This document shows, one piece after another, positions 3,101 through 18,268 of a DNA stretch of 32,329 nucleotides (the stretch's first letter is position 1; each line of letters starts with the position of its first letter). Origin of the DNA: a virus; the IMG/VR virus record IMGVR_UViG_3300025327_000011, one strand, 5' to 3'. A model generated the notes under the pieces. The model did not search any database and had not been told where the DNA came from. It saw only the letters and a program-made list of their open reading frames with translations. Position numbers and translations under genes: made by a program.

Positions 3101-5360
3101 TACTTGTAGTTGTACTTACAAATTTTTCTTTTAATTTAATTAATTCAACTTTTGAACTTTCATTTGATGTTGGAGAATAATTAATTGAATTTACTATAAA
3201 ATAATGTCCCGCTCCATCTTCACTTATTCCATCAATAAAAATAGAATCGCTGAATTTAAAATCATTGATATCTTGTGGAGTTAAATAAATATTACAAGAA
3301 ATTATTCTTGAATCTTTATCAGCAATACCATCGAGATAAGTTTTCCAATGTGCATTTATTAAATTATTATCAGTAATTGAATCTAAATTATAATATTCAT
3401 AATCAACTTTTCCAAATGCGATATCAGTAGTCCCTGTTGAAGGATGATTTAACATTCCTAAATAAGGAAAATAAGTTTGAGTTTGACCACTTAATAACCA
3501 AGAATCAGCAGAAGGTAAAGGTAATATATTTGCAGTATTTTTTTGTAAAATCCTAATATTAAAATCAGTTCTCCCAAAATTTTTATTTGAATCTTTCTTT
3601 CCTATTTTAGGAATAACAAATTCATTTACAGTAGAAGAACTAGATAATGACGATTCGTGAACTGATGCAGAAGGTGTTGGAGAAAAAATAACTTCTATTT
3701 TTTTCTCACCATCAATAAATTCATTATCAATTATAAAATATTCATCTCCAAATATTCTGGTGGTTGTTGTTTTATAGTCTTCATTGTAATAATCTTTATC
3801 TTCTTTATAAGTAAAAATTATTTTTTTATTTTGTTGTTCTGATATTAATTTTTGACTTATTGGAAATTTTAAATCCAATTTTTTTGTCCAATCTTTTGTT
3901 CTTAATCCTCTTGAAAAATAAGTATCACGAGGTTCTACTATTATTTTTTTTGTATTATCTTTAACAGGATCAAGATAAAGATTATGCATGTAAATTAATG
4001 AGTTTAAAAAATCTTTTTGCTTAATCTTTTTTGGAACAATACCATTAAATATTAATGTTTGTCCGGGTAAAGCTTTTGTAGAAACTTTATTATAAAAATT
4101 AGTTCCGACAGAATATAAGTTATAATTTAAATCACCTCCTGCTCCTACTACGTTTATTTTTGTGTCAAGTCTAATTGTAACATAAAAAAGTTCTCCTGGT
4201 TGAACTACTCCAAATTGAGTTCCAACATTTCCATCTAAAGGTGGTGTTAAATAAGTTTTTAGTTTTCTATTGTTTAATATTATATCTCCATTAAATGTAT
4301 TTAAAACATCTGATTGTGAATAAAAACTTCCCTCAAATCCACCTGAATAAGTTGAACGGTAAAATTTAATAATAACATTTGATATTACAGGAGCAACATT
4401 TGTATTACTTCTTGTAAATTCCTCATCTAAAGTTATTGAAAACTGTTGAACAGAAGATGTGTCTGCTGAATATTTATAAATTGTTGTATCATATAAATTT
4501 CCATTATCAAAATAAGGAGCCGGAGTTTCTTTATTTAATGGTATTGTAATTTGATCTGTGAAATCCTGTAAAATACCTGCAGTTAAAGTTTTTGTTAAAG
4601 TATAATCAGTACTTATGCCAACATCAAAACTTCTTCCTGTTGCAAAAGAATTATCTTGATTTAATTCAGTTGTTCCGTTAAATGGAATATATAAATTTGT
4701 AAAATAAGTTCCGGATAAAAAAGTTGAATCATAACTATAACCGGCAGCAGAAAATATTCTATCAACTATGGTTTTTACTTGTAAAGCAGGAAACATTTCT
4801 TCCGCTTTAACTCCCATCCCGATATTCATATCAGTTATATTTAAATCATAACCATAATCAATAAGTGGATAAAAATATGATTGATTTGAGCCTGTCCAAG
4901 ATAATGTTATTCCTGAATAATCCCAAACGTGATTTAAATCAGAGAAATCTAAATCTTCAATATAGGCATCTCCAATATTTTTAAATAAATCCTGACTTTC
5001 AGAAAAAATAGTAACTTGATAATCTATTTTTTTATTTTCATTAACAGCAATTCCTACCAATTGAAAAACACCATTTTGCATTACAGGTATTGAATCAACT
5101 GCTAAGTATGCTGGTGTTTTTTTCCTTGCATCAAAAGTGCTATCAGAACCAATATTAAATATTTGAGTAAGTAATCTATTATTTTTTTCAGAACCTTGTA
5201 TAGTAAAACTTTGTGTATATGGTGCACTTCGTTTTGAAATATCTTTTATGTCCGAAATAGACATTTTAATATTTACCGGTTCGTCTCCATAAGTATCTAA
5301 AAATCCAACAGAATTTGTTGAAGCAGTGCTAATTAATCCAAGTTCTAATTTATTTTCCAT
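1..5360 (-). CDS. Giant tail-fibre / receptor-binding protein, N-terminal portion. It starts at ATG 5358..5360, is open to the window edge, and continues at 32202 across the circular junction.
   Basis: Hand translation from 5360 gives MENKLELGLISTASTNSVGFLDTYGDEPVNIKMSISDIKDISKRSAPYTQSFTIQGSEKNNRLLTQ... with no stop in the first 66 codons. Codons at 3..62 read ...GTIVGTTIFGTTISGNTLYS in the same phase. The ORF track lists no closed minus-strand ORF in 1..5363, as expected if this frame has no stop inside the window. The start lies 4 nt after the stop of the upstream gene (5364). I did not hand-check every codon. Confidence 0.8.
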   Translation of the reverse strand, partial: MENKLELGLISTASTNSVGFLDTYGDEPVNIKMSISDIKDISKRSAPYTQSFTIQGSEKNNRLLTQIFNIGSDSTFDARKKTPAYLAVDSIPVMQNGVFQLVGIAVNENKKIDYQVTIFSESQDLFKNIGDAYIEDLDFSDLNHVWDYSGITLSWTGSNQSYFYPLIDYGYDLNITDMNIGMGVKAEEMFPALQVKTIVDRIFSAAGYSYDSTFLSGTYFTNLYIPFNGTTELNQDNSFATGRSFDVGISTDYTLTKTLTAGILQDFTDQITIPLNKETPAPYFDNGNLYDTTIYKYSADTSSVQQFSITLDEEFTRSNTNVAPVISNVIIKFYRSTYSGGFEGSFYSQSDVLNTFNGDIILNNRKLKTYLTPPLDGNVGTQFGVVQPGELFYVTIRLDTKINVVGAGGDLNYNLYSVGTNFYNKVSTKALPGQTLIFNGIVPKKIKQKDFLNSLIYMHNLYLDPVKDNTKKIIVEPRDTYFSRGLRTKDWTKKLDLKFPISQKLISEQQNKKIIFTYKEDKDYYNEDYKTTTTRIFGDEYFIIDNEFIDGEKKIEVIFSPTPSASVHESSLSSSSTVNEFVIPKIGKKDSNKNFGRTDFNIRILQKNTANILPLPSADSWLLSGQTQTYFPYLGMLNHPSTGTTDIAFGKVDYEYYNLDSITDNNLINAHWKTYLDGIADKDSRIISCNIYLTPQDINDFKFSDSIFIDGISEDGAGHYFIVNSINYSPTSNESSKVELIKLKEKFVSTTTSTSIYHPWNNPGDPVQVVAVGGPKILSTGGIGSGQGVFIDYGSQNSIAVGRDLIIGAGSPRSMIVGSGSTIDSGLKSTFIFGDNISANIANTVYVPNLISLSGISTNGISATTFFSGSTNLETIISNLASGIEDITRVQPGSNITTGGTANLPIINVVDSPSFNSISSSGASSFTTLSASTLISGSTNIENIFIQGSGSTNTIPLWNGNKVLGNSILTQGTTGLTVNGSIQIYGNVDVLGTATTFNTATVQTSDNNIVMNLSGSHLSALNGGISVLSGLTNGVASTWTIDSKGAWSANTEILTSAITVNGGNISVTNGSFISGSTDVSTLFATPANITLINSQLATKANLSGATFTGQVNAPSLSATTISGGTINGGILLSGNTNLYNIFLTTNDGNDITRVQPGTNITTGGTANNPTINLVNSPSIASITASGASSFTTLTATTLISGSTDVSTLFATPANITSINSQLATKANLSGATFTGTVNGGTIVGTTIFGTVLSGNTLYSGASDVSLLFGSAALAGTHSAQLLTKANRSGDTFTGQVNAPSFSATTVSGATIFSASTDVSLLFGSAALAGTHSAQLLTKANLSGATFTGTVTGGNIAGTTIFGTTISGNTLYSGASDVSTLFATPANITLINSQLATKANLSGATFTGTVNGGNIAGSTVFGTILSGNTLYSGASDVSTLFATPANITSINSQLATKANLSGATFTGTVTGGNIAGSTVFGTTLSGNTLYSGASDVSLLFGSAALAGTHSAQLLTKANRSGDTFTGQVNAPSFSSTTISGGTIFGIDLKILNSNNVKSSIFQSTTDTTTAPTVISASTYLHLGSNEYNLNSYRLIGFGYNSGLANIAPAYIGFQEKSIVGHTLGDLIFGTRNSTLSNATPTERMRITAGGNVNAYSLSGGTFSGGTIHSGSTDVSTLFATPANITLINSQLATKANLSGATFTGTVTGGNIAGSTVFGTALSGNTLYSGASDVSTLFATPANITLINSQLATKANLSGATFTGTVNGGTIVGTTIFGTTISGNTLYS
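790..1760 (-). repeat. Second coding tandem array of two alternating fibre repeat types (ANLSGATFTG and ANRSGDTFTG units).
   Basis: Motif copies lie near 790, 965, 1141, 1318, 1480 and 1657, with 162-177 bp spacing. The block gagctgaatg.gt.ccggcaagtgctgctga.ccgaataataaact recurs near 830, 1360, 1520, 30910 and 31790. Confidence 0.8.
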
Positions 5361-8257: not shown

Positions 8258-8560
8258 TTAATTATAAATATTATTTTTTTGTGCTTGTTTTTGTTTTGAT
8301 TCGAAAAATTGTTCCTTTTCCTTCCAAAAGCTTAAAAGATTTAAAGCAGAAATCCAATTTACTTTATATATTTCTTCAAACTTTGTTATATCTCCCTGTG
8401 CAAGCTTTTCTATTATCGAAAACCAACTCCAACGATTAAAACTTGTATCTATTTGGTCTCCATCTTTTGTTGAAAACTCTTCTTGTTCTTCATTTTTATT
8501 TTGGATGTTGAAAATTCCACTGAATTGTTTGAGGGTTTTTTCTCTCCAAGCAAAAAAAAA
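8258..8560 (-). CDS. -1 frame extension of the 8449..9090 gene. Candidate programmed frameshift fusion of about 277 aa, or a homopolymer assembly error.
   Basis: Hand translation of the -1 frame from the T9 run gives FFFAWREKTLKQFSGIFNIQNKNEEQEEFSTKDGDQIDTSFNRWSWFSIIEKLAQGDITKFEEIYKVNWISALNLLSFWKEKEQFFESKQKQAQKNNIYN, then TAA at 8258..8260. That stop is 4 nt before the ATG of the next gene (8253). The -1 frame is closed by TAG (8563..8561) immediately upstream of the run. Confidence 0.5.
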   Translation of the reverse strand, partial: FFFAWREKTLKQFSGIFNIQNKNEEQEEFSTKDGDQIDTSFNRWSWFSIIEKLAQGDITKFEEIYKVNWISALNLLSFWKEKEQFFESKQKQAQKNNIYN

Positions 8561-9090
8561 CTAATTATATCATAAACATCAGTTATCATAATAAATTTGG
8601 ATTTTTCATTGATGATTAAATTAATGTTATCCGGATTAAAAGGTTCTATATTTCCATCTGGAAGTATTCTTCTAAATAAAACTCCAAATGCTATTTCTGT
8701 TGGCGTTAAATCAAAAGCTTGTTTATCTTTTAACATAGTTTCAATTGAAATGCTTTCACCAACAGTTAATTTTGTGAAATCCTTTTTTATTGTCCATTCT
8801 TCATCATCTATTTTAAAAGAAGTTACAGGAACTTTCGAAGTTTTAGGCTCAACATTCATCCATTTGAATGAATCCTGTATCTTTTTGAAATCATCCACGT
8901 TTATATTAATTGCTATTTTAGAAAATTCAGGATTATTACATAAAAGTGATAATGTTTTTATAAATACTTCAATAGAAGAAGAGTTTTTATCCTCTGCAGA
9001 ATTTAAGATATCAATGTAATTTTTTAAAGTAACTTCATCCCATCCGGAAGGAAATAAAAATTCTTTATTTTCTATTTTTAAGTTTAGCAT
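8449..9090 (-). CDS. Hypothetical protein, zero-frame product (213 aa). It contains a U9 slippery run 33 codons before its TAG stop.
   Basis: Track ORF. The minus strand reads ATT AGT TTT TTT TTG CTT at 8565..8548. Confidence 0.6.
   Translation of the reverse strand: MLNLKIENKEFLFPSGWDEVTLKNYIDILNSAEDKNSSSIEVFIKTLSLLCNNPEFSKIAININVDDFKKIQDSFKWMNVEPKTSKVPVTSFKIDDEEWTIKKDFTKLTVGESISIETMLKDKQAFDLTPTEIAFGVLFRRILPDGNIEPFNPDNINLIINEKSKFIMITDVYDIISFFLLGEKKPSNNSVEFSTSKIKMKNKKSFQQKMETK
8552..8563 (-). promoter_or_regulatory. Candidate -1 ribosomal slippery site: U UUU UUU UUG within a U9 run.
   Basis: The plus strand has A9 at 8552..8560. The heptamer fits X XXY YYZ, and the open -1 frame begins exactly here. 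Confidence 0.45.
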
Positions 9091-9172
9091 ATTGTTTTTT
9101 TATTTGTAAATAGTGTGTAAAAAAGTAAAATCATACTTTCGTTGATAATAAATATAATTAATGAAATTTAGT

Positions 9173-10438
9173 TTATTGAAATATAAATGAGCCGGAATAT
9201 TGATTTTGTTTCATACAATAATAACCAATTGCTAATGACATAATTATATCATCGTGCCCGTAATTGGCTTGGTATGTTACATTTCCTTTTTTTGATATTG
9301 AATAACCAAATGCTTCCATTTCTGAAATAATATTTGGGTCATTTAACAATTGAATTTTTCCTCCATTGAAATCATAAATCAAATCATTTATTATTAATGG
9401 TTTAGAAGTAGAAGTTGTAGCGAATCCTTCAACTTGATATGCTCCACGTGAAATTAATTGCTCTATTATTGGTAAACCAAATGAGTTCGATTCTATATAG
9501 CACTTACAAACCCGAAATAGGTTAAGTGACGAGACTATTCTACGTAATATCTCATCATTACTTGTTTGATTAAATCTATCTATATATACAAGCTCTGCTC
9601 TTTGATTAAATATAGATATAACAGTAAAGTCATTCTTAAATCCTACATCGATTCCCGCGAAGTAAGTTTCTGAATCACGTGGTCCGGATAACTTATTTAA
9701 CTTCGTAAAATCCTTTATGTTTTTAAATAAACTACCACCATCGACAAACTCTGCCATATATTCTTGTTCGAAAATATCGATAGGCAGGATTTTTCTTTGT
9801 TGCTCAATAAACTCGATATTTGCATACGGATTATCAATATATGTAGTTTTAAAACTTTTAAAAGATTTATTCTCAGGGTCTTTTCCTTGTAAAAAAAGTT
9901 TATAGAAAAAATTCTTTCCACGAGGAGTTGAACCAAAGATTACTTTTTTTCCGCGAACTAATAGTGTGGGTGCCAATATAGTTGTCCAAGTCTCCTCATA
10001 AACAAATGCACACTCATCCATTAATAAATGTGTATTACTGTAGCCTCGAAGAGAATTTGTGCTTGCCGCTGACCTAAAAAGTATAACCGAACCATTAGTA
10101 AATGCTATTTCACTATCGCCAGCCTGTATTTTATAGGATTTAACATATGGTAAATGTATAATTGAATTTAAAATCTGCTTATATATCTTTTTTGATTGAG
10201 AATCTACCGGAGAAACAACCATTATATGTTGGTCGTTTAGATTTAAGGCATAATATACTGCCATATTTTGCATCAGAAATGTCTTTCCTGATTGTCTACT
10301 TGCATTATAGACTATATATTTGGTAGTCAGGTCTATACAAGTTTTTACTATCTCTTTTTGAGCCTCATAAGGCGTGAAAAGTTTTAATGTTGTTTTTTGA
10401 TTTGGTTCCATAAATGTATGTGGCTCGTGTGTGAGCAT
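9173..10438 (-). CDS. terL: Terminase large subunit, 421 aa.
   Basis: Walker A-like SRQSGKT, Walker B-like HLLMDECAF, and C-terminal RNase H-like nuclease acidic motifs GIDVGFKNDFTV and GHDDIIMSLA. It lies downstream of terS. Confidence 0.85.
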   Translation of the reverse strand: MLTHEPHTFMEPNQKTTLKLFTPYEAQKEIVKTCIDLTTKYIVYNASRQSGKTFLMQNMAVYYALNLNDQHIMVVSPVDSQSKKIYKQILNSIIHLPYVKSYKIQAGDSEIAFTNGSVILFRSAASTNSLRGYSNTHLLMDECAFVYEETWTTILAPTLLVRGKKVIFGSTPRGKNFFYKLFLQGKDPENKSFKSFKTTYIDNPYANIEFIEQQRKILPIDIFEQEYMAEFVDGGSLFKNIKDFTKLNKLSGPRDSETYFAGIDVGFKNDFTVISIFNQRAELVYIDRFNQTSNDEILRRIVSSLNLFRVCKCYIESNSFGLPIIEQLISRGAYQVEGFATTSTSKPLIINDLIYDFNGGKIQLLNDPNIISEMEAFGYSISKKGNVTYQANYGHDDIIMSLAIGYYCMKQNQYSGSFIFQ

Positions 10439-10495
10439 ATATTATTAAATAGATTAAAAAAAAATAATATATGTTGCTGATTAATAGGATTTTAC
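10439..10495 (-). promoter_or_regulatory. Promoter candidate for terL. The minus strand reads GTAAAATCCT, 19 nt, TATTTTTT, then ..TCTATTTAATAATAT-ATG.
   Basis: Same architecture and spacing as 16464..16519, including the shared leader TCTATTTAATA. Confidence 0.5.
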
Positions 10496-10631
10496 ATATT
10501 AATGTTAATATATGACTCAATTTTTAGGTTCTCTTCAGAGCTTGACTGGGCGAGGCTCCAAAAAAAGATTTACGTAAACCCAGCTTCACTCAGTAAAATC
10601 CTGATGAGCTTATATAAATTCAAAACCAGAA

Positions 10632-10667
10632 CGTAAAATCCTGTTGATGGCTCCAATATCCAGAATA
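10632..10667 (+). repeat. 36-nt direct repeat A1: cgtaaaatcctgttgatggctccaatatccagaata.
   Basis: Matches 11081..11116 at 35 of 36 positions. Confidence 0.9.
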
Positions 10668-10768
10668 TACCAAGGGCTCTTCAGTAAAATCCTACAGCTC
10701 TTCAGCACAATCCTATAGTTTTACTTGCCTAATCCAATAATGTTAATAACTTTTTATAACTTTTAAAA

Positions 10769-10798
10769 CTCATCATACCTCATCATACCTCATCATAC
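10769..10798 (+). repeat. Perfect tandem repeat, 3 x ctcatcatac.
   Basis: Read directly from the sequence. A single related copy, cctcatcata, lies at 10991..11000 upstream of repeat B2. Confidence 0.9.
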
Positions 10799-10815
10799 AC
10801 TTTAAGTTAAGGTTC

Positions 10816-10849
10816 ACTTAATGAGTAACTACTCTAAGTAGGATTTTAC
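10816..10849 (+). repeat. Repeat B1: acttaatgagtaactactctaagtaggattttac.
   Basis: Aligns with 11020..11054 (acttaatgagttactacatctaaataggattttac), with one indel and three mismatches. Confidence 0.8.
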
Positions 10850-10859
10850 GTAAAATCCT
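10840..10859. promoter_or_regulatory. Perfect 20-bp palindrome AGGATTTTAC|GTAAAATCCT. Candidate operator or dimer-binding site.
   Basis: Read directly. It consists of two abutting half-sites of the over-represented decamer. Confidence 0.6.
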
Positions 10860-11019
10860 TTTACTATTTATAACCCACACATACTGGAATATCGATTGTT
10901 GATAACTTTATTTATACTTGCGTATAACCAGTGCATTTACGAATGTTTGTAAATAATTTGTGGCACGATTATTGGCTGGCATAGTTATTGCCTCATCATA
11001 AACTTAGAGTTAAATACTT

Positions 11020-11054
11020 ACTTAATGAGTTACTACATCTAAATAGGATTTTAC
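11020..11054 (+). repeat. Repeat B2, partner of 10816..10849.
   Basis: See B1. Its terminal AGGATTTTAC (11045..11054) forms a 10-bp inverted repeat with GTAAAATCCT at 11082..11091, with a 27-nt spacer. Confidence 0.8.
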
Positions 11055-11080
11055 TTCGGCCTTTGGCACCAGTCTCTAAT

Positions 11081-11116
11081 CGTAAAATCCTGTTGATGGC
11101 TCCAACATCCAGAATA
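11081..11116 (+). repeat. 36-nt direct repeat A2: cgtaaaatcctgttgatggctccaacatccagaata.
   Basis: Matches 10632..10667 at 35 of 36 positions. Confidence 0.9.
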
Positions 11117-11128
11117 CTATAATATTTC

Positions 11129-11322: not shown

Positions 11323-11769
11323 TTATTCTTCCGAATCGGATATTTCATCTTTAAAATAATTTTCAATTTCTTTATCAGTTAAAAGTTTTGGAACATCAAG
11401 GTCTGGAAACTTTAATTCTAAATTTAGAGATTGAACCTGGATTTTACTTGCTTCGTTGAAGCCCAGCATTCTATTTATTATCTCTAAGGCTTTTAAACTG
11501 GCCATGGAGTTTTGGTTCTTCTGAGCGTTTTTGATATCTAAAAGGTCTTGAAGTATAGATTCTCGGGTAATCTGGGATTTTAGAGCCAGCTGAGCCTTTT
11601 GGCGAGTTATTTCTTGTTGAATGCTATCTTTTGCAAGTAAATCAGAAGATAAAGATCTTGCACTATCATAACTAACTCCTTCATATGCAGACATATAAGA
11701 ATGAACAGCAACTCCTGTTTTAATATACTCATCAATGAATGCTTGTTGTTTTATGTTAATTACTTCCAT
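11323..11769 (-). CDS. terS: Terminase small subunit, 148 aa.
   Basis: N-terminal QQAFIDEYIKTGVAVHSYMSAYEGVSYDSARSLSSDLLAKDSIQQEI resembles the Terminase_2-type HTH (F..EY......A...AGYS...A......LL..P.v...I). It lies upstream of terL. Confidence 0.75.
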   Translation of the reverse strand: MEVINIKQQAFIDEYIKTGVAVHSYMSAYEGVSYDSARSLSSDLLAKDSIQQEITRQKAQLALKSQITRESILQDLLDIKNAQKNQNSMASLKALEIINRMLGFNEASKIQVQSLNLELKFPDLDVPKLLTDKEIENYFKDEISDSEE

Positions 11770-11785
11770 TTTATGTTAATGTTGT

Positions 11786-11817
11786 GTAAAATCCTGTTAT
11801 TTGTATTGTAAAATCCT
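11786..11817. promoter_or_regulatory. Two GTAAAATCCTGTT copies 22 bp apart, immediately upstream of the terS start.
   Basis: The copies are at 11786..11795 and 11808..11817. On the coding (minus) strand they read AACAGGATTTTAC. Confidence 0.5.
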
Positions 11818-12538: not shown

Positions 12539-13138
12539 TTAAGTTTGTTTTTGTATTTCTTTTTGTATTATTTCTCTGGCATTTTTTACATAAGAATGTA
12601 CGGCCATTAAACTTATTCCTGTTTTTTTAGCAATTTTTCTATATGTTAAGTTTTCGTTATAATACATTCTAAATAACTTAAAGTCTCGTATAAGAATAGG
12701 AATTTCTTTTGTTTTTTGTTCAACAATTGAGTCAATTAGGTTTATTTTATTTTGAATTTTATCCTGCAATTCAATTTCAAATTCAGTTTCCTCAGTTATT
12801 TCCTCTATTTGGAAGTTTTCAATATCTTCGTATAAACCAAAACCATCTTTTTTTCTCATTTGATAATGCCAACGACTTGTTGAGCTGCATACATTATTTT
12901 TAATCATTTTTATGTAAATCCATTTAAAGAAACCATTATTCCAATAAGTTAATACTTTTGGCATTTCACATATAGATAAGTGAAGCATTTGTCTAAATTC
13001 ATTTCTTTCATCTTTTTTAGGAAGAAACTTATGAAGTATTTCCTCATAAAAAGAATCATTTGATATTAAATAAAACATTTTAGTTAAAGTATCTGCAGTT
13101 AAAGTATTAATAGTGCTTGCTGTTATAGTTATTTTCAT
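12539..13138 (-). CDS. Putative transcription factor with a sigma-70 region-4-like C-terminal HTH, 199 aa.
   Basis: The C-terminus LTYRKIAKKTGISLMAVHSYVKNAREIIQKEI resembles a sigma region 4.2 / LuxR-type HTH. The N-terminal part is not clearly region 2. Confidence 0.45.
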   Translation of the reverse strand: MKITITASTINTLTADTLTKMFYLISNDSFYEEILHKFLPKKDERNEFRQMLHLSICEMPKVLTYWNNGFFKWIYIKMIKNNVCSSTSRWHYQMRKKDGFGLYEDIENFQIEEITEETEFEIELQDKIQNKINLIDSIVEQKTKEIPILIRDFKLFRMYYNENLTYRKIAKKTGISLMAVHSYVKNAREIIQKEIQKQT

Positions 13139-13481: not shown

Positions 13482-13982
13482 TTACTTTTCTGATATTTTA
13501 AATGAACCGTGACTTCCTATTTCGTAATCCGAATACTTTATTATTTCAATTGGATTTTTAAGTTTTGCTACATATTTATCGATTAAAGTTTTATCGACTG
13601 AAGACTCGGGTAAAAGTTTCCATTCAAATACATATTTTTTTATATCTTTTAATTCATAAATAGCCACACCATCTTTAGTAAAATTAATATAAAGCAACCT
13701 TATTTTAATATCTTTAGCACGCATAATTGATTCCGCTTTGCGTTTTATAGCTGCGAACTTTATGAATTCACAATAAGGTCCATATTTAACGGAAGTGTGT
13801 AAATCACAATCCATCCTGACTTTTATTTCTGCCATGCAATACGTATTTCCACTCCTGAGCTTTACGTCATTACAACTTCCTTTCTGTTCGTACACAGATT
13901 TGGTTATTTCTGGCTTTATAAATTTTAATTTATCAAATAAACTTTGTCCAATTAATTCTGATTCATCAAAAAAATCTATCAT
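13482..13982 (-). CDS. Hypothetical protein, possible PD-(D/E)xK-fold nuclease, 166 aa.
   Basis: D..(12)..E-I-K arrangement (NDVKLRSGNTYCMAEIKVR) in a beta-strand context. Weak call made by eye. Confidence 0.3.
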   Translation of the reverse strand: MIDFFDESELIGQSLFDKLKFIKPEITKSVYEQKGSCNDVKLRSGNTYCMAEIKVRMDCDLHTSVKYGPYCEFIKFAAIKRKAESIMRAKDIKIRLLYINFTKDGVAIYELKDIKKYVFEWKLLPESSVDKTLIDKYVAKLKNPIEIIKYSDYEIGSHGSFKISEK

Positions 13983-14031
13983 ATTGTTTTTGTTTTTTAT
14001 GTAAATAGTAAATAAAAAAGTAAAAGCTGGT

Positions 14032-14706
14032 TTATTTAAATTGTTTAGCTAATTTTGAGTTCTTTTTTAATAATTCAAGCATAGTTTTAAGTCGCCATTT
14101 ACAAAGAGAATCTGATATTCCTATTTTTTTACTTATTTCATTTGTTGATTTTAATTTTTCAAAACCAAACAATCCAAATCTATAGTATAAAATTATTTTC
14201 CAGTCTTCTTTTTTTATAAGTTTATTTATAGCTCGGTATAACACATCAAAATCCCTTGAAGTATCTTCTTCTTCAGCTTGTGTAATGTCATCTATTATTT
14301 CTTGTCCGGAAGTACAAATAGGAAGTTCTTCTTCTTCAGTTTCTGATTCTGGATTAGGTGCACAGTACTCTTTATTCTTTTTAAAATAATCTGATAATAT
14401 GTTTTGCGGAATTCTTATAGTTCTTTTGTTTTGCATTAACCAAGTTAACATCTCTCCTCTTACGTGTATTTTTGCGTATGTGATGAAATATACTCCTTTT
14501 TCTGGACAAAAATCTTGCATTGCATTGTAAAGTCCAATATTTCCCATTTGAATTAAGTCATCAAGGTATTCTGGATTATGAAGTGCATTAGCTATTTTAT
14601 ATATGAACCACTTATTTTTAGACAATAGTTTTTCGAAATCCTTTTTTATTACAAGGCTCACATTTTCTTCGTTTAATTCTTTAAGTTGTTCTTTAGTGTA
14701 TTTCAT
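14032..14706 (-). CDS. Sigma-70 family RNA polymerase sigma factor, 224 aa from the internal ATG at 14706.
   Basis: Region 2 motif LIQMGNIGLYNAMQDFCPEKGVYFITYAKIHVRGEMLTWLMQNKRTIRIPQNI (compare DLIQEGNIGL..A...F....G..FSTYA...IR..I........RTIRIP). Region 4 HTH ISKKIGISDSLCKWRLKTMLELLKK. The track start at 14772 would place a conserved upstream element inside the coding sequence. Confidence 0.8.
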   Translation of the reverse strand: MKYTKEQLKELNEENVSLVIKKDFEKLLSKNKWFIYKIANALHNPEYLDDLIQMGNIGLYNAMQDFCPEKGVYFITYAKIHVRGEMLTWLMQNKRTIRIPQNILSDYFKKNKEYCAPNPESETEEEELPICTSGQEIIDDITQAEEEDTSRDFDVLYRAINKLIKKEDWKIILYYRFGLFGFEKLKSTNEISKKIGISDSLCKWRLKTMLELLKKNSKLAKQFK

Positions 14707-14710
14707 TTTA

Positions 14711-14740
14711 CTTAAATAGTACAGGAAAAAGTAAAATCCA
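14711..14740 (-). promoter_or_regulatory. Conserved upstream element, copy 1. The minus strand reads TGGATTTTACTTTTTCCTGTACTATTTAAG.
   Basis: A 24-nt core, TTTTACTTTTTCCTGTACTATTTA, is identical to 16749..16772 (plus strand). It ends 4 nt before the sigma-factor ATG. Confidence 0.55.
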
Positions 14741-14821
14741 ATTCTATTAACAAAGTCGTTGGTTATTAACAAAATCGGAAATACTGTATTTAAATAGAAT
14801 TATAGGACAGTTAATAAAAAA

Positions 14822-15166: not shown

Positions 15167-16213
15167 TTATTGAATTAAGATTACTTCTCCTTCTGTTGAA
15201 TTAAGATTAAAGTATACTTTTATATCAGCAATAATAGTTTGCCTTTCATTTGTATTTAATCTTGTTTCTTTTGTTTCTATATCAAATATTATTTTATTGA
15301 AAAGAATATTCCTTTCTACAAAAGATAAAGAAGAGATTATTTCAGGTGGATTTTGAGTAGTTACTTCATTCCAGATATATTCTTCTGTTCTTATTACATT
15401 ATTTTCAATTGCAGGCTCTTTTTTAGTTATTGTATATTTATTTTCTTGAACCAATTCTTTTTTTTCAGCTGAATTATAAATATGTTTATTTACTCTTTTT
15501 GTTAAAATAGATTTATCTGTTGAATTAATAGTATTTGATTTATCTATATACGATTTTATTTCATTGAATAAAGGAAGTTTTGTTTCTAAAGCATCAATTG
15601 TTTCTCTTGTATGTTTTTCAATAAATCCTGCGAAAAACTTTTCAGCTCTTTTTTCACTTATCTGTTCCGGAGTTAAAATCTCTTTTTCAATTAATTCAAC
15701 TGGCTCTTCTTTTTTAATTTCAACTTCAAATTCCGGAATTTCAATTTTCTTGTTTAGGTTAATATTATTTATGTTAGTCTTGTTTAAATTAATATTATTT
15801 AAGTTAGTCTTATTTATACCTCGATTTACCATAGATGGTTCAGCCATAGATGGTTCAGCCATAGATGGTTCAGCCATAGATGGTAAATCGCTATATGGAT
15901 TTAGCTCGAAAGACCACTGGATTTGCCCTTTTTCATTTTTAGTTCTAACTCTTTTTGCGTAGTTTTTAGCTATTAATTTGTTATAAATTGCCCTCTGAAT
16001 TAGTTCAGAATTAGTGCTTCTTTTATAGATTTCTGTGATAAAAACCTTCCATTCTTTTGAATTAGAAATTAGAATAGAAAGTAATCCTTTTTCTTCAAGA
16101 CTTAAAGTTTTATTATTTAAGATTGAGTTAGGAACTTTAGTAAAACCCTTTAGGTTTGTTTTAGATTTTTTTGTGGTTTTTGTGGCAATATTGCCAGATG
16201 TTGGTGTTTCCAT
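15167..16213 (-). CDS. Putative replication initiator / DNA-binding protein (winged-helix N-terminus), 348 aa, with internal tandem repeats.
   Basis: The N-terminal FTKVPNSILNNKTLSLEEKGLLSILISN pattern is typical of phage/plasmid Rep or replisome-organiser N-terminal domains (F..vPn.il.d..Ls...kgl). It sits next to iteron-like repeats and is the only replication-type gene seen. Confidence 0.45.
   Translation of the reverse strand: METPTSGNIATKTTKKSKTNLKGFTKVPNSILNNKTLSLEEKGLLSILISNSKEWKVFITEIYKRSTNSELIQRAIYNKLIAKNYAKRVRTKNEKGQIQWSFELNPYSDLPSMAEPSMAEPSMAEPSMVNRGINKTNLNNINLNKTNINNINLNKKIEIPEFEVEIKKEEPVELIEKEILTPEQISEKRAEKFFAGFIEKHTRETIDALETKLPLFNEIKSYIDKSNTINSTDKSILTKRVNKHIYNSAEKKELVQENKYTITKKEPAIENNVIRTEEYIWNEVTTQNPPEIISSLSFVERNILFNKIIFDIETKETRLNTNERQTIIADIKVYFNLNSTEGEVILIQ
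15829..15885 (-). repeat. 15-bp in-frame tandem repeat, ccatagatggttcag x 3.8, encoding (PSMAE)n.
   Basis: Read directly. The protein shows LPSMAEPSMAEPSMAEPSM. An adjacent imperfect repeat of about 27 bp x 2 (15757..15815) encodes NLNNINLNKTNINNINLNK. Confidence 0.9.
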
Positions 16214-16463
16214 TTTTATTTACCTTTTTAATTGTTTTTTAACCTTTTTGTTTTTGTGCCTGGGTAGGTAAACCAACGGTAATTACTCCGCTGGAAACCC
16301 AGGAAACTGAATTTTTAGTTCTGTTTAGTATTAGTAAATAGTATATAAAAAAATAAATACTGGGTTAAACATAAATTTTTAAATGAAAAAGTCAATATTT
16401 CAACCAAAACGTTAATCATTTGTAAATAAATATTTTTATTAACACGTTAATAGAACTAACTCA

Positions 16464-16500
16464 GTAAAATCCTATAAATAAAACCTAATCAATAATTTTG
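16464..16500 (+). promoter_or_regulatory. Promoter candidate: GTAAAATCCT, 19 nt, then TAATTTTG (-7 box). The box ends 19 nt upstream of the ATG at 16520.
   Basis: The TAnnTTTG consensus of Bacteroidota sigma-A promoters is matched at 16493..16500. The decamer occupies the -33 position. Confidence 0.55.
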
Positions 16501-16519
16501 TTGTCTATTTAATAGAATA

Positions 16520-16744
16520 ATGACTGAAGAAGAAATATCAAAAACAAGGCTAAACTATCTTAAAGATAAGTTTGATGAAAAATATTCAATTGAATCATTA
16601 TCCAGATTAGTTGGAATTTCACGAATTAAGAAGTTTTCTGAAATAATCAGTGCAATATATTTAAAAGAAAAATCTCTTTTAGATGAAGATAGAAAAAAAT
16701 TGGGTCGTTTTATTAGTAAATATTTTTATCCAAATAGAGAATAA
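16520..16744 (+). CDS. Small HTH DNA-binding protein (Cro/XRE-like early regulator), 74 aa.
   Basis: SIESLSRLVGISRIKKFSEI resembles a helix-turn-helix. It is the first gene of the divergent plus-strand cluster. Confidence 0.5.
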   Translation: MTEEEISKTRLNYLKDKFDEKYSIESLSRLVGISRIKKFSEIISAIYLKEKSLLDEDRKKLGRFISKYFYPNRE

Positions 16745-16747
16745 TAA

Positions 16748-16780
16748 TTTTTACTTTTTCCTGTACTATTTATAAATAAA
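16748..16780 (+). promoter_or_regulatory. Conserved upstream element, copy 2: TTTTTACTTTTTCCTGTACTATTTATAAATAAA.
   Basis: The 24-nt core is identical to the minus-strand copy at 14711..14740. It lies about 18 nt upstream of the ATG at 16798. Confidence 0.55.
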
Positions 16781-16797
16781 CGATAAAACTAAAAATT

Positions 16798-17115
16798 ATG
16801 ATAGATGTGTGTTATTATGACCTCTCGCTTGATAAACAAAATTCCTGCTTGATTGCTGTGAAGAATAAATCTTCTTATATTCCTAAAAAAGGAGAGATAA
16901 TTAAAATTTCACTCCCTTATTGCGAACATATAACTTATATTGATGATTATAAAATGGGAGAGTCAGTTAAGTTTATTGTTGATGTTGTTGAATATAACCT
17001 TGATAGTAATGAAATAGATGATATTGAAGAAAAAAATACAGAAATGGTATGTGTTTATATTACCAGATTAACTGAATATCTTAAAAGAAAGGTTTTAGTT
17101 GAAAAAATAATTTAA
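16798..17115 (+). CDS. Hypothetical protein, 105 aa.
   Basis: Track ORF preceded by the conserved element. Confidence 0.55.
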   Translation: MIDVCYYDLSLDKQNSCLIAVKNKSSYIPKKGEIIKISLPYCEHITYIDDYKMGESVKFIVDVVEYNLDSNEIDDIEEKNTEMVCVYITRLTEYLKRKVLVEKII

Positions 17116-17125
17116 AATAATTCTG

Positions 17126-17157
17126 ATTTAACTTTTTCCTTAACTATTTATAATAAA
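17126..17157 (+). promoter_or_regulatory. Conserved upstream element, copy 3 (degenerate): ATTTAACTTTTTCCTTAACTATTTATAATAAA.
   Basis: Shares ACTTTTTCCT..ACTATTTATAA with copies 1 and 2. It lies just upstream of the ATG at 17162. Confidence 0.45.
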
Positions 17158-17161
17158 AAAA

Positions 17162-17353
17162 ATGAATAACTGTAGTGATATACCATTAAACTGTTTTTTT
17201 GAAACAAAAAAAGATTTTAAAAATCTCGTTCAAACACGGATAGTAATATTTGAAAAGTATAATGAAAAGATTGAAAAGTATAATGAAAAGATAAAAACAG
17301 AGTATTTTATTTTGAAACAAAGAATATATTCAAACACGGATAGTAATATTTGA
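17162..17353 (+). CDS. Small hypothetical protein (63 aa as it stands). Its frame is terminated inside a 100-bp tandem duplication.
   Basis: Track ORF. See repeat 17229..17387. The +1 frame after the duplication stays open to 17462. Confidence 0.4.
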   Translation: MNNCSDIPLNCFFETKKDFKNLVQTRIVIFEKYNEKIEKYNEKIKTEYFILKQRIYSNTDSNI

Positions 17354-17387
17354 AAAGTATAATGAAAAGATAAAAACAGAGTATTTT
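17229..17387 (+). repeat. Tandem duplication, copy 1 at 17229..17308 and copy 2 at 17329..17387, offset exactly 100 bp. Copy 1 has a nested 21-bp duplication (17250..17270 = 17271..17291).
   Basis: ttcaaacacggatagtaatatttgaaaagtataatgaaaaga and taaaaacagagtatttt both occur twice. Read directly. Confidence 0.9.
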
Positions 17388-17468
17388 GAAATTAAAATGA
17401 TGGAACGTCAAAAACAACTTAGTGACTTTTTAGATAACTTACCGACAAAACCAAGAAATTAAGTAAAA

Positions 17469-17678
17469 ATGAACTATGACGATTATACTTTCGAAGAAAA
17501 AAAGAAAGAACGTACACAAATAAATATCGATATAAAAGACAGAGGAAGATATCTTATGTGGAGAGCATTGTGTAAAAACAATGGCTGGAACCAATCATAC
17601 ATAATAAGAGAATGTTTATTTGAACTTATGGAAAAAGCAATAAAAGAAAATAACAACAAACAAAATGAAAATAACTAA
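17469..17678 (+). CDS. Ribbon-helix-helix (CopG/Arc-like) DNA-binding protein, 69 aa.
   Basis: The putative beta-strand TQINIDI is followed by two helices (RGRYLMWRALCKNNGW, QSYIIRECLFELMEKAI). Pattern call by eye. Confidence 0.45.
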   Translation: MNYDDYTFEEKKKERTQINIDIKDRGRYLMWRALCKNNGWNQSYIIRECLFELMEKAIKENNNKQNENN

Positions 17679-17754
17679 AAGTGAAATAACAGCATTTATT
17701 TTAGGTGCTTTTTTGGGATTAATTATAGAATTAGTCATTTATATAATGAAATAA
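17665..17754 (+). CDS. Possible 29-aa single-pass membrane peptide.
   Basis: Hand translation gives MKITKSEITAFILGAFLGLIIELVIYIMK. It overlaps the previous ORF by 14 nt and is followed by a terminator. Confidence 0.3.
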   Translation: MKITKSEITAFILGAFLGLIIELVIYIMK

Positions 17755-17782
17755 TCCTGCTTTATCAGGTTATAAAAAAGTA

Positions 17783-17831
17783 AAATCCTGCAGATTTAGT
17801 CACTCATTTTATGCAGGTTTTATTTTTTTTT
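17783..17831 (+). terminator. Intrinsic terminator closing the plus-strand early cluster.
   Basis: Stem CCTGCA (17787..17792) pairs with TGCAGG (17812..17817), followed by TTTTATTTTTTTTT. Confidence 0.7.
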
Positions 17832-17860
17832 GGTTTATTGAAAAAAATTTACTATCTTTG
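17829..17860 (+). promoter_or_regulatory. Host-type promoter: TTTG (-33), 20 nt, TATCTTTG (-7).
   Basis: TTTG at 17829..17832 and TATCTTTG at 17853..17860 match the Bacteroidota TTTG / TAnnTTTG consensus and spacing. The -7 box ends 51 nt upstream of the ATG at 17912. Confidence 0.6.
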
Positions 17861-17911
17861 TCGTCAATTAAATGAAAATCATTTAGTTTTTTAACTTAAA
17901 TCTTAAATCAA

Positions 17912-18268
17912 ATGAAAAAGTACATTTTAATGTTGGGAATGATAATTTTTTTATTATCTTCTTGTAAAAAAGAAAAAATAGTAGTAGTTCCTACTCATAC
18001 TATGGAAATTGAAATAACAAGAGCAAATACTCCTGGATATTATACAATTAATGGAGGTAATCAAATTAAAATCGGTTATGTTAATTCATCTCCCCAATTA
18101 ATAACTTTCTCAGCAAAAAAAGGTGATGTTATTTTTTGTCATATAAGTAATCAAGTTTATGGAGGAGCAAATTATAATTTATATTTAAAAGAAGATGGAA
18201 ATATAGTTATAAATAATCATTATTATTATACTGATAATAGTGGTGTTATAAATTATACAGTTTTGTAA
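17912..18268 (+). CDS. Lipoprotein (moron), 118 aa.
   Basis: Signal peptide with lipobox MKKYILMLGMIIFLLSSC. The gene has its own promoter and terminator and is oriented opposite to the flanking lysis genes. Confidence 0.7.
   Translation: MKKYILMLGMIIFLLSSCKKEKIVVVPTHTMEIEITRANTPGYYTINGGNQIKIGYVNSSPQLITFSAKKGDVIFCHISNQVYGGANYNLYLKEDGNIVINNHYYYTDNSGVINYTVL

Follow-up and report, generated by a model that had tools for sequence, protein, structure and literature searches.

A ten-letter word recurs upstream of two genes in an uncultured phage of low GC content (about 29%), and the question raised by this locus is whether the word serves as a core promoter element, as a docking site for a regulator, or in a role to which the adjoining promoters are incidental. 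We addressed this question in the window, which is the whole stretch of 32,329 nt analyzed here (IMG/VR record IMGVR_UViG_3300025327_000011) and for which no close relative was found among deposited phages. The initial annotation had placed the decamer GTAAAATCCT at -33 of two otherwise canonical host-type promoters, those of gene 16520 and of the large terminase gene terL. The reading that we prefer, and hold tentatively, is that the decamer would act as an operator or activator site common to divergent promoters, forming the -30 element of the leftward promoter and overlapping the upstream zone of the rightward one. The features on which the argument draws are listed in Table 1.

Table 1. 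Coordinates of the genes, decamers and promoter-like sites discussed for the window
Feature	Position	Strand	Remark
TerL (large terminase) gene	9173..10438	-	
(TGA)TTTTAC-N11-CTATTTA	9107..9130	-	5' of ORF 8449..9090
CTATTTA box	10446..10452	-	7 nt ahead of first terL ATG
TATTTTTT, proposed terL -7 box	10459..10466	-	final base T instead of G
Exact decamer 5' of terL	10486..10495	-	outermost in the array of the terS-terL gap
Non-coding island	10439..11128	.	8 exact decamers, both orientations
terS	11323..11769	-	
Two exact decamers	11786..11817	+	22 nt apart
Region-4-type HTH protein	12539..13138	-	199 aa
TTTTAC-N11-CTATTTA	14002..14025	-	5' of ORF 13482..13982
Sigma-70 family protein	14032..14706	-	with region 2
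Putative sigma-gene promoter, TGGATTTTAC-N11-CTATTTA	14713..14740	-	decamer with one mismatch
Rep-like protein	15167..16213	-	
Divergent control region, rep and gene 16520	16214..16519	.	306 nt
Tentative 34-aa hydrophobic ORF MINVLVEILTFSFKNLCLTQYLFFYILFTNTKQN	16315..16419	-	predicted; start 27 nt past the leftward CTATTAA box
Leftward two-part promoter-like site, AGGATTTTAC-N10-CTATTAA	16447..16473	-	same decamer, other strand
Exact decamer GTAAAATCCT	16464..16473	+	minus strand reads AGGATTTTAC
TAATTTTG, perfect TAnnTTTG match	16493..16500	+	19 nt past the decamer
CTATTTA box within the shared leader TCTATTTAATA	16505..16511	+	8 nt ahead of ATG
74-aa ORF (gene 16520)	16520..16744	+	first rightward gene
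Small rightward genes	16520-18268	+	
TTTTAC-N11-CTATTTA	16749..16772	+	5' of ORF 16798
TTTAAC-N11-CTATTTA	17127..17150	+	5' of ORF 17162

Copies of the decamer and their layout in the window

Exact copies of the decamer numbered 15 compared to about 0.2 expected, exceeding the total of 12 that the initial annotation had implied, and 38 copies were counted when up to one mismatch was allowed (4.4 expected; 38 reached in 0 of 100 shuffles). On the reverse strand the word reads AGGATTTTAC. It was noted that GG precedes ATTTTAC in 22 of 31 heptamers, which places the conserved core at GGATTTTAC; this core occurred 20 times compared to 0.49 expected from shuffles, and 13 of the 20 fell within the non-coding DNA that makes up 9% of the window. 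The decamer copies were encountered in either orientation, some of them single, some paired as palindromes, and others arrayed near terS and terL, with a further copy at 17780. We suggest, as part of the tentative operator/activator reading, that the decamer may represent a single strand of (A)GGATTTTAC, a conserved word of 9-10 bp on which a protein would dock; the binding of a protein and the direction of its effect are what we infer from the sequence. A literature search on the word returned unrelated primers only.

Both upstream regions were laid out as had been described. On the plus strand, the decamer is followed after 19 nt by TAATTTTG, then by TCTATTTAATA (16504-16514) and the ATG at 16520, and on the minus strand the decamer at 10495..10486 is followed after 19 nt by TATTTTTT (10466..10459), then by TCTATTTAATA and the ATG at 10438. 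A TAnnTTT[GT] box at this distance was found downstream of only these 2 of the 15 decamers, and the remark that the remaining copies lack a correctly spaced -7 box was borne out for all 13. Because such boxes have a density of 0.0034 per nt, the chance of two decamers sharing one identical box spacing is roughly 0.001-0.01.

Bacteroidota primary-sigma promoters carry TTTG at -33 and TAnnTTTG at -7, spaced 19-21 bp apart. The two regions resemble this design in that the -7 box is matched perfectly by TAATTTTG at 16493 and the place of the -33 TTTG is taken at both sites by the decamer, with a 19-bp spacer. They depart from it in that the decamer contains no TTTG, the terL box TATTTTTT ends in T, and TAnnTTTG occurs in the window no more often than expected (62 copies compared to about 61, precisely 61.3, from shuffles). 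The label of otherwise canonical host-type promoters was mostly not borne out. Only three TAnnTTTG copies were intergenic and no more than 120 nt from a start codon, namely those ahead of 16520, 17912, and 24583. A sigma-70 consensus scan of the window gave fewer matches than shuffles.

The decamers of the terS-terL array are non-contiguous, with spacings of 10 to 195 nt. A perfect palindrome, AGGATTTTAC followed directly by GTAAAATCCT, was found inside the non-coding island at 10840-10859, and the two decamers ahead of terS, at 17 and 39 nt from its ATG, read AGGATTTTAC on the coding strand of that gene. The true start of terL is probably the second ATG, at 10411, because the alignment of its relatives begins only at residue 15; the 27 nt upstream of this codon carry a hairpin, GCUCACACACGAGC (10423-10436). 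Three tandem TCATCATAC(C/A) units were also observed in the island at 10770-10799, beside an AT-rich stretch.

The decamer at 16464 lies in the control region between rep and gene 16520, which was 100% identical across four strains, whereas the Rep proteins there differ by up to 5%. The relatives of the Rep protein were either too close to the window phage or came from phages without the decamer word. The product of gene 16520 contains, by eye, an HTH-like stretch (SIESLSRLVGISRIK), and no homologues were found for it beyond identical copies. When read from the other strand, the same decamer belongs to a leftward promoter-like site that points toward the tentative 34-aa ORF and rep. This site is off consensus in two respects compared to the promoter class described below, with N10 in place of N11 and CTATTAA in place of CTATTTA.

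A two-part promoter class and its upstream element

The heptamer CTATTTA was found close to start codons, with 8 of its 21 window copies no more than 60 nt upstream of one, a zone that comprises about 3% of sequence space. A two-part design, TTT[TA]AC-N10-12-CTATT[TA]A, occurred at 6 window sites compared to 0.1 in shuffles. The spacing of N10-11 to CTATT[TA]A was fixed at the six sites, all read from the strand opposite to the orientation used by the initial annotation. Five of these sites precede the sigma gene and the ORFs at 16798, 17162, 13982, and 9090, and the sixth is the reverse strand of the 16464 decamer. The two-part design was also recovered from three other phage sequences, namely L002, L152 (TGGATTTTAC-N11-CTATTTA), and L156, where it occurred twice with N9.

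From this comparison, the reverse strand of the decamer appears as the perfect form of the upstream element, at about -30, of a promoter class of the phage's own. The earlier placement of the decamer in the -35/-30 zone stood in part: the word seems to work there, on the other strand, as GGATTTTAC or TTTTAC 11 nt upstream of CTATTTA. If CTATTTA is taken as the downstream box, the decamer would sit near -50 of the rightward promoters instead of at -33, and the two proposed -7 boxes would be the T-rich tract ahead of CTATTTA; for TAATTTTG, this could equally be the case. For the annotation of this genome, the proposed -7 box is an unreliable promoter signal, and the recurring promoter-proximal boxes are CTATTTA and TATATTTAT.

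The second of these boxes, in the form TATATTTAT(A/T)AT, was counted 12 times compared to 2.9 expected. Eight copies lie on the coding strand (minus; 26714, 24508, 23791, 21432, 20982, 12532, 9156, and 6980), most of them directly 5' of structural and other minus-strand genes. The box is a candidate late promoter, possibly read by a phage sigma factor as the late TATAAATA box of T4 is.

The geometry of the two-part class recalls the middle promoters of T4, which combine a MotA box at -30 with a -10 element and depend on sigma appropriation by MotA and AsiA. In both, a 9-bp non-palindromic box is located 11-13 bp upstream of a -10-like element, replacing the normal -35, and several early or middle genes share the box. 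The corresponding arrangement TTTTAC-N12-TATTTA was present at 5 window genes and in one off-consensus copy, and also in L002 and L152. Unlike the T4 box, the window word is also found free-standing, inverted, palindromic, and arrayed, it occurs in phages that have no BLAST-detectable proteins in common with the window phage, and the two promoters singled out by the initial annotation carry it inverted and about 10 bp further upstream. As no match to the MotA or AsiA family was recovered among 20 window proteins searched against PHROGs and 10 against Pfam, this likeness bears on how the site may work and not on family membership.

A second likeness is to operators that overlap the -35 zone, such as those of lambda CII at pRE, of cI at OR2/PRM, and class II CRP sites. 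The decamer covers about -41 to -32, the control region is divergent, a small gene with an HTH-like stretch adjoins it, and one site could serve two promoters. The window sites differ in that most are lone half-sites of 10 bp and not dyads or direct repeats of the TTGC-N6-TTGC kind, and in their number, with 15 or more copies of which many are inside genes.

Under the preferred operator/activator reading, the word would be put to two uses. In the first, GGATTTTAC or TTTTAC at a fixed distance of 11 nt upstream of CTATTTA would form the approximately -30 element of the phage's own promoter class, driving the sigma gene and the ORFs at 16798, 17162, 13982, and 9090. In the second, free-standing decamers in either orientation would be used singly, as palindromic pairs, or as the terS/terL array, with the terL-proximal copy as the outermost member of the latter. 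On its top strand the 16464 decamer would cover about -41 to -32 of the rightward promoter, and its bottom strand would provide the upstream element of the two-part promoter that points left, so that a single protein bound there could repress or adjust rightward transcription and at the same time serve the leftward promoter. Several observations weigh against this reading. At both sites a T-rich box follows at the same distance of 19 nt, which is improbable by chance and fits an element of fixed geometry, as the initial annotation had supposed; the leftward site is off consensus; the jumbo phage described below encodes a sigma-70 family protein, which leaves a phage-encoded reader conceivable there; and a bacterial genome with an excess of the word, which would have favored a host factor, was not found.

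The word in related and unrelated phages

We compared the decamers of the window to those of its siphophage relatives. L002 and L003, whose terL is 75% identical to that of the window, carry the word in equal abundance, with 12-13 exact decamers in 4-7 kb. In both, the terL ATG is 2 nt from AGGATTTTAC, which is turned the opposite way, and a decamer likewise reversed lies 1 nt from the terS ATG. The more distant L156 (terL 37% identical) has a palindromic pair, AGGATTTTAC-A-GTAAAATCCT, at 16 nt from the terL ATG. The terL-upstream decamer thus varies in orientation and distance among the window, L002, and L156 lineages, and a common feature of these three is the concentration of copies within about 2.7 kb centred on the terS-terL junction.

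The layout shared by gene 16520 and terL, which the initial annotation had itself named as refutable by relatives, was absent at terL in L002, L003, and L156. A -7 box at 17-23 nt downstream of the decamer was found at 0 of 13 copies in L002, 0 of 12 in L003, and 0 of 57 in the jumbo phage G001, giving 82 copies in other phages. The -33 registration of the terL-proximal decamer appears to be specific to the window lineage.

The terS-terL gap appears to be a hotspot for inserted material. In L005 (terL 50% identical), a GIY-YIG/NUMOD-like homing-endonuclease ORF at 3827-4465 replaces the decamer island. Another gene, at 13482-13982 (minus strand) of the window, encodes a 166-aa protein with an invariant D-x12-E-x-K pattern like that of PD-(D/E)xK nucleases. 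It was conserved in all three siphophage lineages that carry the decamer (window, L002, and L156); no copy was seen in the part of L005 examined.

A block of 16 nt, CTGGCATAGTTATTGC, was identical at 16 of 16 positions between the window (10977-10992, plus strand) and L002 (5066-5081, minus strand). It is the sole match to the strict sigma-54 pattern TGGCAY-N5-TTGC in either sequence, reads opposite to terS and terL, and could be a sigma-54-type promoter or merely a conserved block. The pattern match TGGCATAGTTATTGC of the window and L002 was absent in L156 and G001, and a sigma-54 promoter with the decamers as enhancer sites was rejected.

The word is also abundant in G001 (IMGVR_UViG_3300025319_000005), a contig of 212 kb and 29% GC that belongs to the sample series of the window. 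It contains 57 exact decamers compared to 0-3 copies of a control word, and had no BLAST-detectable proteins in common with the window besides one weak partial match (35% over 82 aa) to a putative prohead protease. Within G001, at least 13 repeated cassettes place GGATTTTAC 48-167 nt upstream of GTATAGTAC, which is the core promoter of this phage. For decamers in the orientation of the initial annotation the upstream distance was mostly 220-310 nt, and several of them immediately follow terminator-like hairpins carrying a T-run. Because the distances between decamer and promoter vary, the arrangement suggests that the decamer in G001 would be the site of a regulator rather than a core promoter element.

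Further details of G001 were recorded. Between 5.8 and 92 kb, 56 GTATAGTAC copies were counted on one strand, with TTGTAAC about 20 nt upstream of each, and the cassettes of about 300 nt consist of a terminator, the decamer, hairpins, TGTCAC-N17-GTGACA, and then TTGGATTTTACGTATATC. More words beside decamers are common to the window and this unrelated phage, at 10896-10912, 14741-14755, and 16446-16455 of the window, and at 1597-1620 and about 1806-1825 of L016. One such word, GTTATCAACAAT, has an IHF-like WATCAA core and resembles a DnaA box. Another, CTTTGTTAATAGAAT, consists of 15 nt identical between the region upstream of the window sigma promoter and a G001 island. A search for known RNA families found nothing beyond tRNAs in G001.

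Candidate readers and competing explanations

Among the alternatives to the operator/activator reading, it is fairly unlikely that the overlap with the promoters is coincidental. The decamer would then chiefly serve another purpose, such as docking in an array for packaging or DNA organization at terS/terL, the promoter-proximal pair would have no regulatory role, and the shared layout would stem from two similar promoters built of a T-tract and CTATTTA. The clustering of most copies at terS/terL in three lineages, the unconserved layout, and the presence in both regions of the generic T-tract and CTATTTA design of other genes are in keeping with this. Against it, the same spacing would seldom arise twice at random (about 0.001-0.01), the array lies far from the 16464 copy, whose control region does not vary among strains, and G001 ties the decamer to promoter cassettes, not to packaging genes.

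Known docking arrays offer a further comparison. The Omega heptad arrays of pSM19035, lambda cosB, P1 pac, and SPP1 pac likewise use short non-palindromic repeats, direct and inverted, at promoters and clustered near maintenance or packaging genes. The window copies differ in being non-contiguous (10 to 195 nt), and an array of the window type is missing in the closer relative L005 and present in the unrelated jumbo phage. No RHH or ParB-like protein was detected.

As to the reader of the word, the pattern suggests a host-encoded factor, somewhat favored over the sigma-like proteins of the window, since the word is unchanged among lineages whose terL identity is 37-75%, and also in a jumbo phage for which BLAST detected no proteins in common with the window. 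In its widest form, which we regard as unlikely, (A)GGATTTTAC would be the code word of one host-encoded factor, and phages unrelated to one another but infecting a single uncultured host of low GC content would each have recruited it. In the window phage it would serve as a -30 element akin to the MotA box and also as a terminase operator or docking array, so that the state of the host would gate the transcription cascade and the packaging genes. The word itself is common to several uncultured phages, and its letter-for-letter presence in phages without BLAST-detectable common proteins would mark a common host factor and could serve as a host-linkage marker for metagenomic phages. If the decamer is a true regulatory site, it would open the transcription program of an uncultured, Bacteroidota-like phage group that lacks known promoter biology. 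Early or middle genes would be served by a two-part promoter with a -30 box and late ones by the separate box TATATTTAT, and the program would further include two sigma-like proteins of the phage and the 10-bp word that also occurs in an unrelated jumbo phage.

A host genome saturated with the decamer, as in an uptake-sequence or Chi-like system, was considered and rejected. At least 120 contig matches were mostly tandem repeats that include the word by chance. Five of these genomes were checked and held 12-38 decamers compared to 5-33 copies of control words; a large share of the surplus fell in single tandem arrays, so that none was saturated. A genome contig scan found no bacterial genome with a decamer excess. 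One Bacteroidales match with co-occurring words proved to be a histidine-kinase coding region, and the orientation of the decamers around the array does not fit a Chi-like signal. Arrays of GTAAAATCCT-containing units with periods of 12, 21, and 22 nt were observed in four unrelated MAG contigs (L099, L107, L097, and L043), with 13 copies in 510 nt of L099. These are probably tandem repeats or iterons that include the word fortuitously.

It is quite improbable that the decamer replaces the -33 TTTG in a small regulon read by the sigma factor at 14032..14706, by the region-4 protein at 12539..13138, or by a MotA-like appropriator, as the initial annotation had mainly proposed. Both proteins are what they were said to be, with matches to Sigma70_r2 (8e-9) and Sigma70_r4_2 (7e-7), respectively; TAnnTTT[GT] follows at precisely 19 nt in both regions, and the decamer does work in the -30 zone of the two-part class, albeit on the other strand. 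Set against this, the layout is missing from all copies in L002, L003, L156, and G001, TAnnTTTG is not enriched in the window, and a two-promoter regulon leaves the other 13 exact copies unaccounted for. What persists of the original interpretation is the option of a repressor or activator site overlapping the upstream zone and the statement that the word is not simply a promoter; the -33 element read by sigma region 4 mostly does not.

The recognition helices give a similar picture. The window protein has LMAVHSYVKNAR, its positional homologue in L156 has KNSLWEVINKVK (a weak homology, hhalign E 0.07), and that of L005 has VVSIWKYVNNVI. The helix in L002 is nearly equal to that of the window, and it differs both in L005, which has no decamers, and in the L156 homologue, which has many. 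Because the helices are unlike between the word-bearing window and L156, with the homology of the latter as weak as stated, the helix does not track the decamer, and the lack of covariation across the window, L002, L005, and L156 weakens the phage sigma or region-4 protein as its reader. By BLAST and HMM searches, G001 contains no homologue of either window sigma-like protein. It encodes a sigma-70 family protein of its own, whose region 4 was unlike both in family searches. The word is identical across lineages in which the recognition helix is not.

We consider it very improbable that the decamer is a recognition repeat for TerS within a pac or cos region, with the terL-upstream copy as part of the packaging signal. 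Packaging sites built from short repeats near terS are known from lambda cosB, SPP1 pac, and P1 pac, and the roughly 2.7-kb clusters around the terS-terL junction of the window, L002, and L156 would suit such a role. However, no Terminase_2 TerS was found in G001 to accompany its 57 copies, and its decamer island adjoins a methyltransferase-like gene. L005 encodes a TerS homologue and has 0 decamers, with the homing-endonuclease ORF in the gap, and the TerS proteins are only 29-37% identical while the decamer is invariant. On these points TerS/pac was rejected as a general explanation, which would also leave the 16464 and 17780 copies and the sigma-gene promoter unexplained.

Two further candidates were dismissed. 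An RNA-level element or Shine-Dalgarno mimic was suggested by AGGA at 7-8 nt ahead of the L002 terS and terL ATG, a spacing that is not general, and the role of the decamer would be at the DNA level because palindromes and both orientations occur. Rep iterons do not agree with the irregular spacing, the use of both orientations, and decamers 4 kb from rep. A separate tandem array was found inside the Rep-like gene itself, where four to five iteron-like 15-nt units of CCATAGATGGTTCAG at 15814-15903 recall the internal origin of the lambda O gene.
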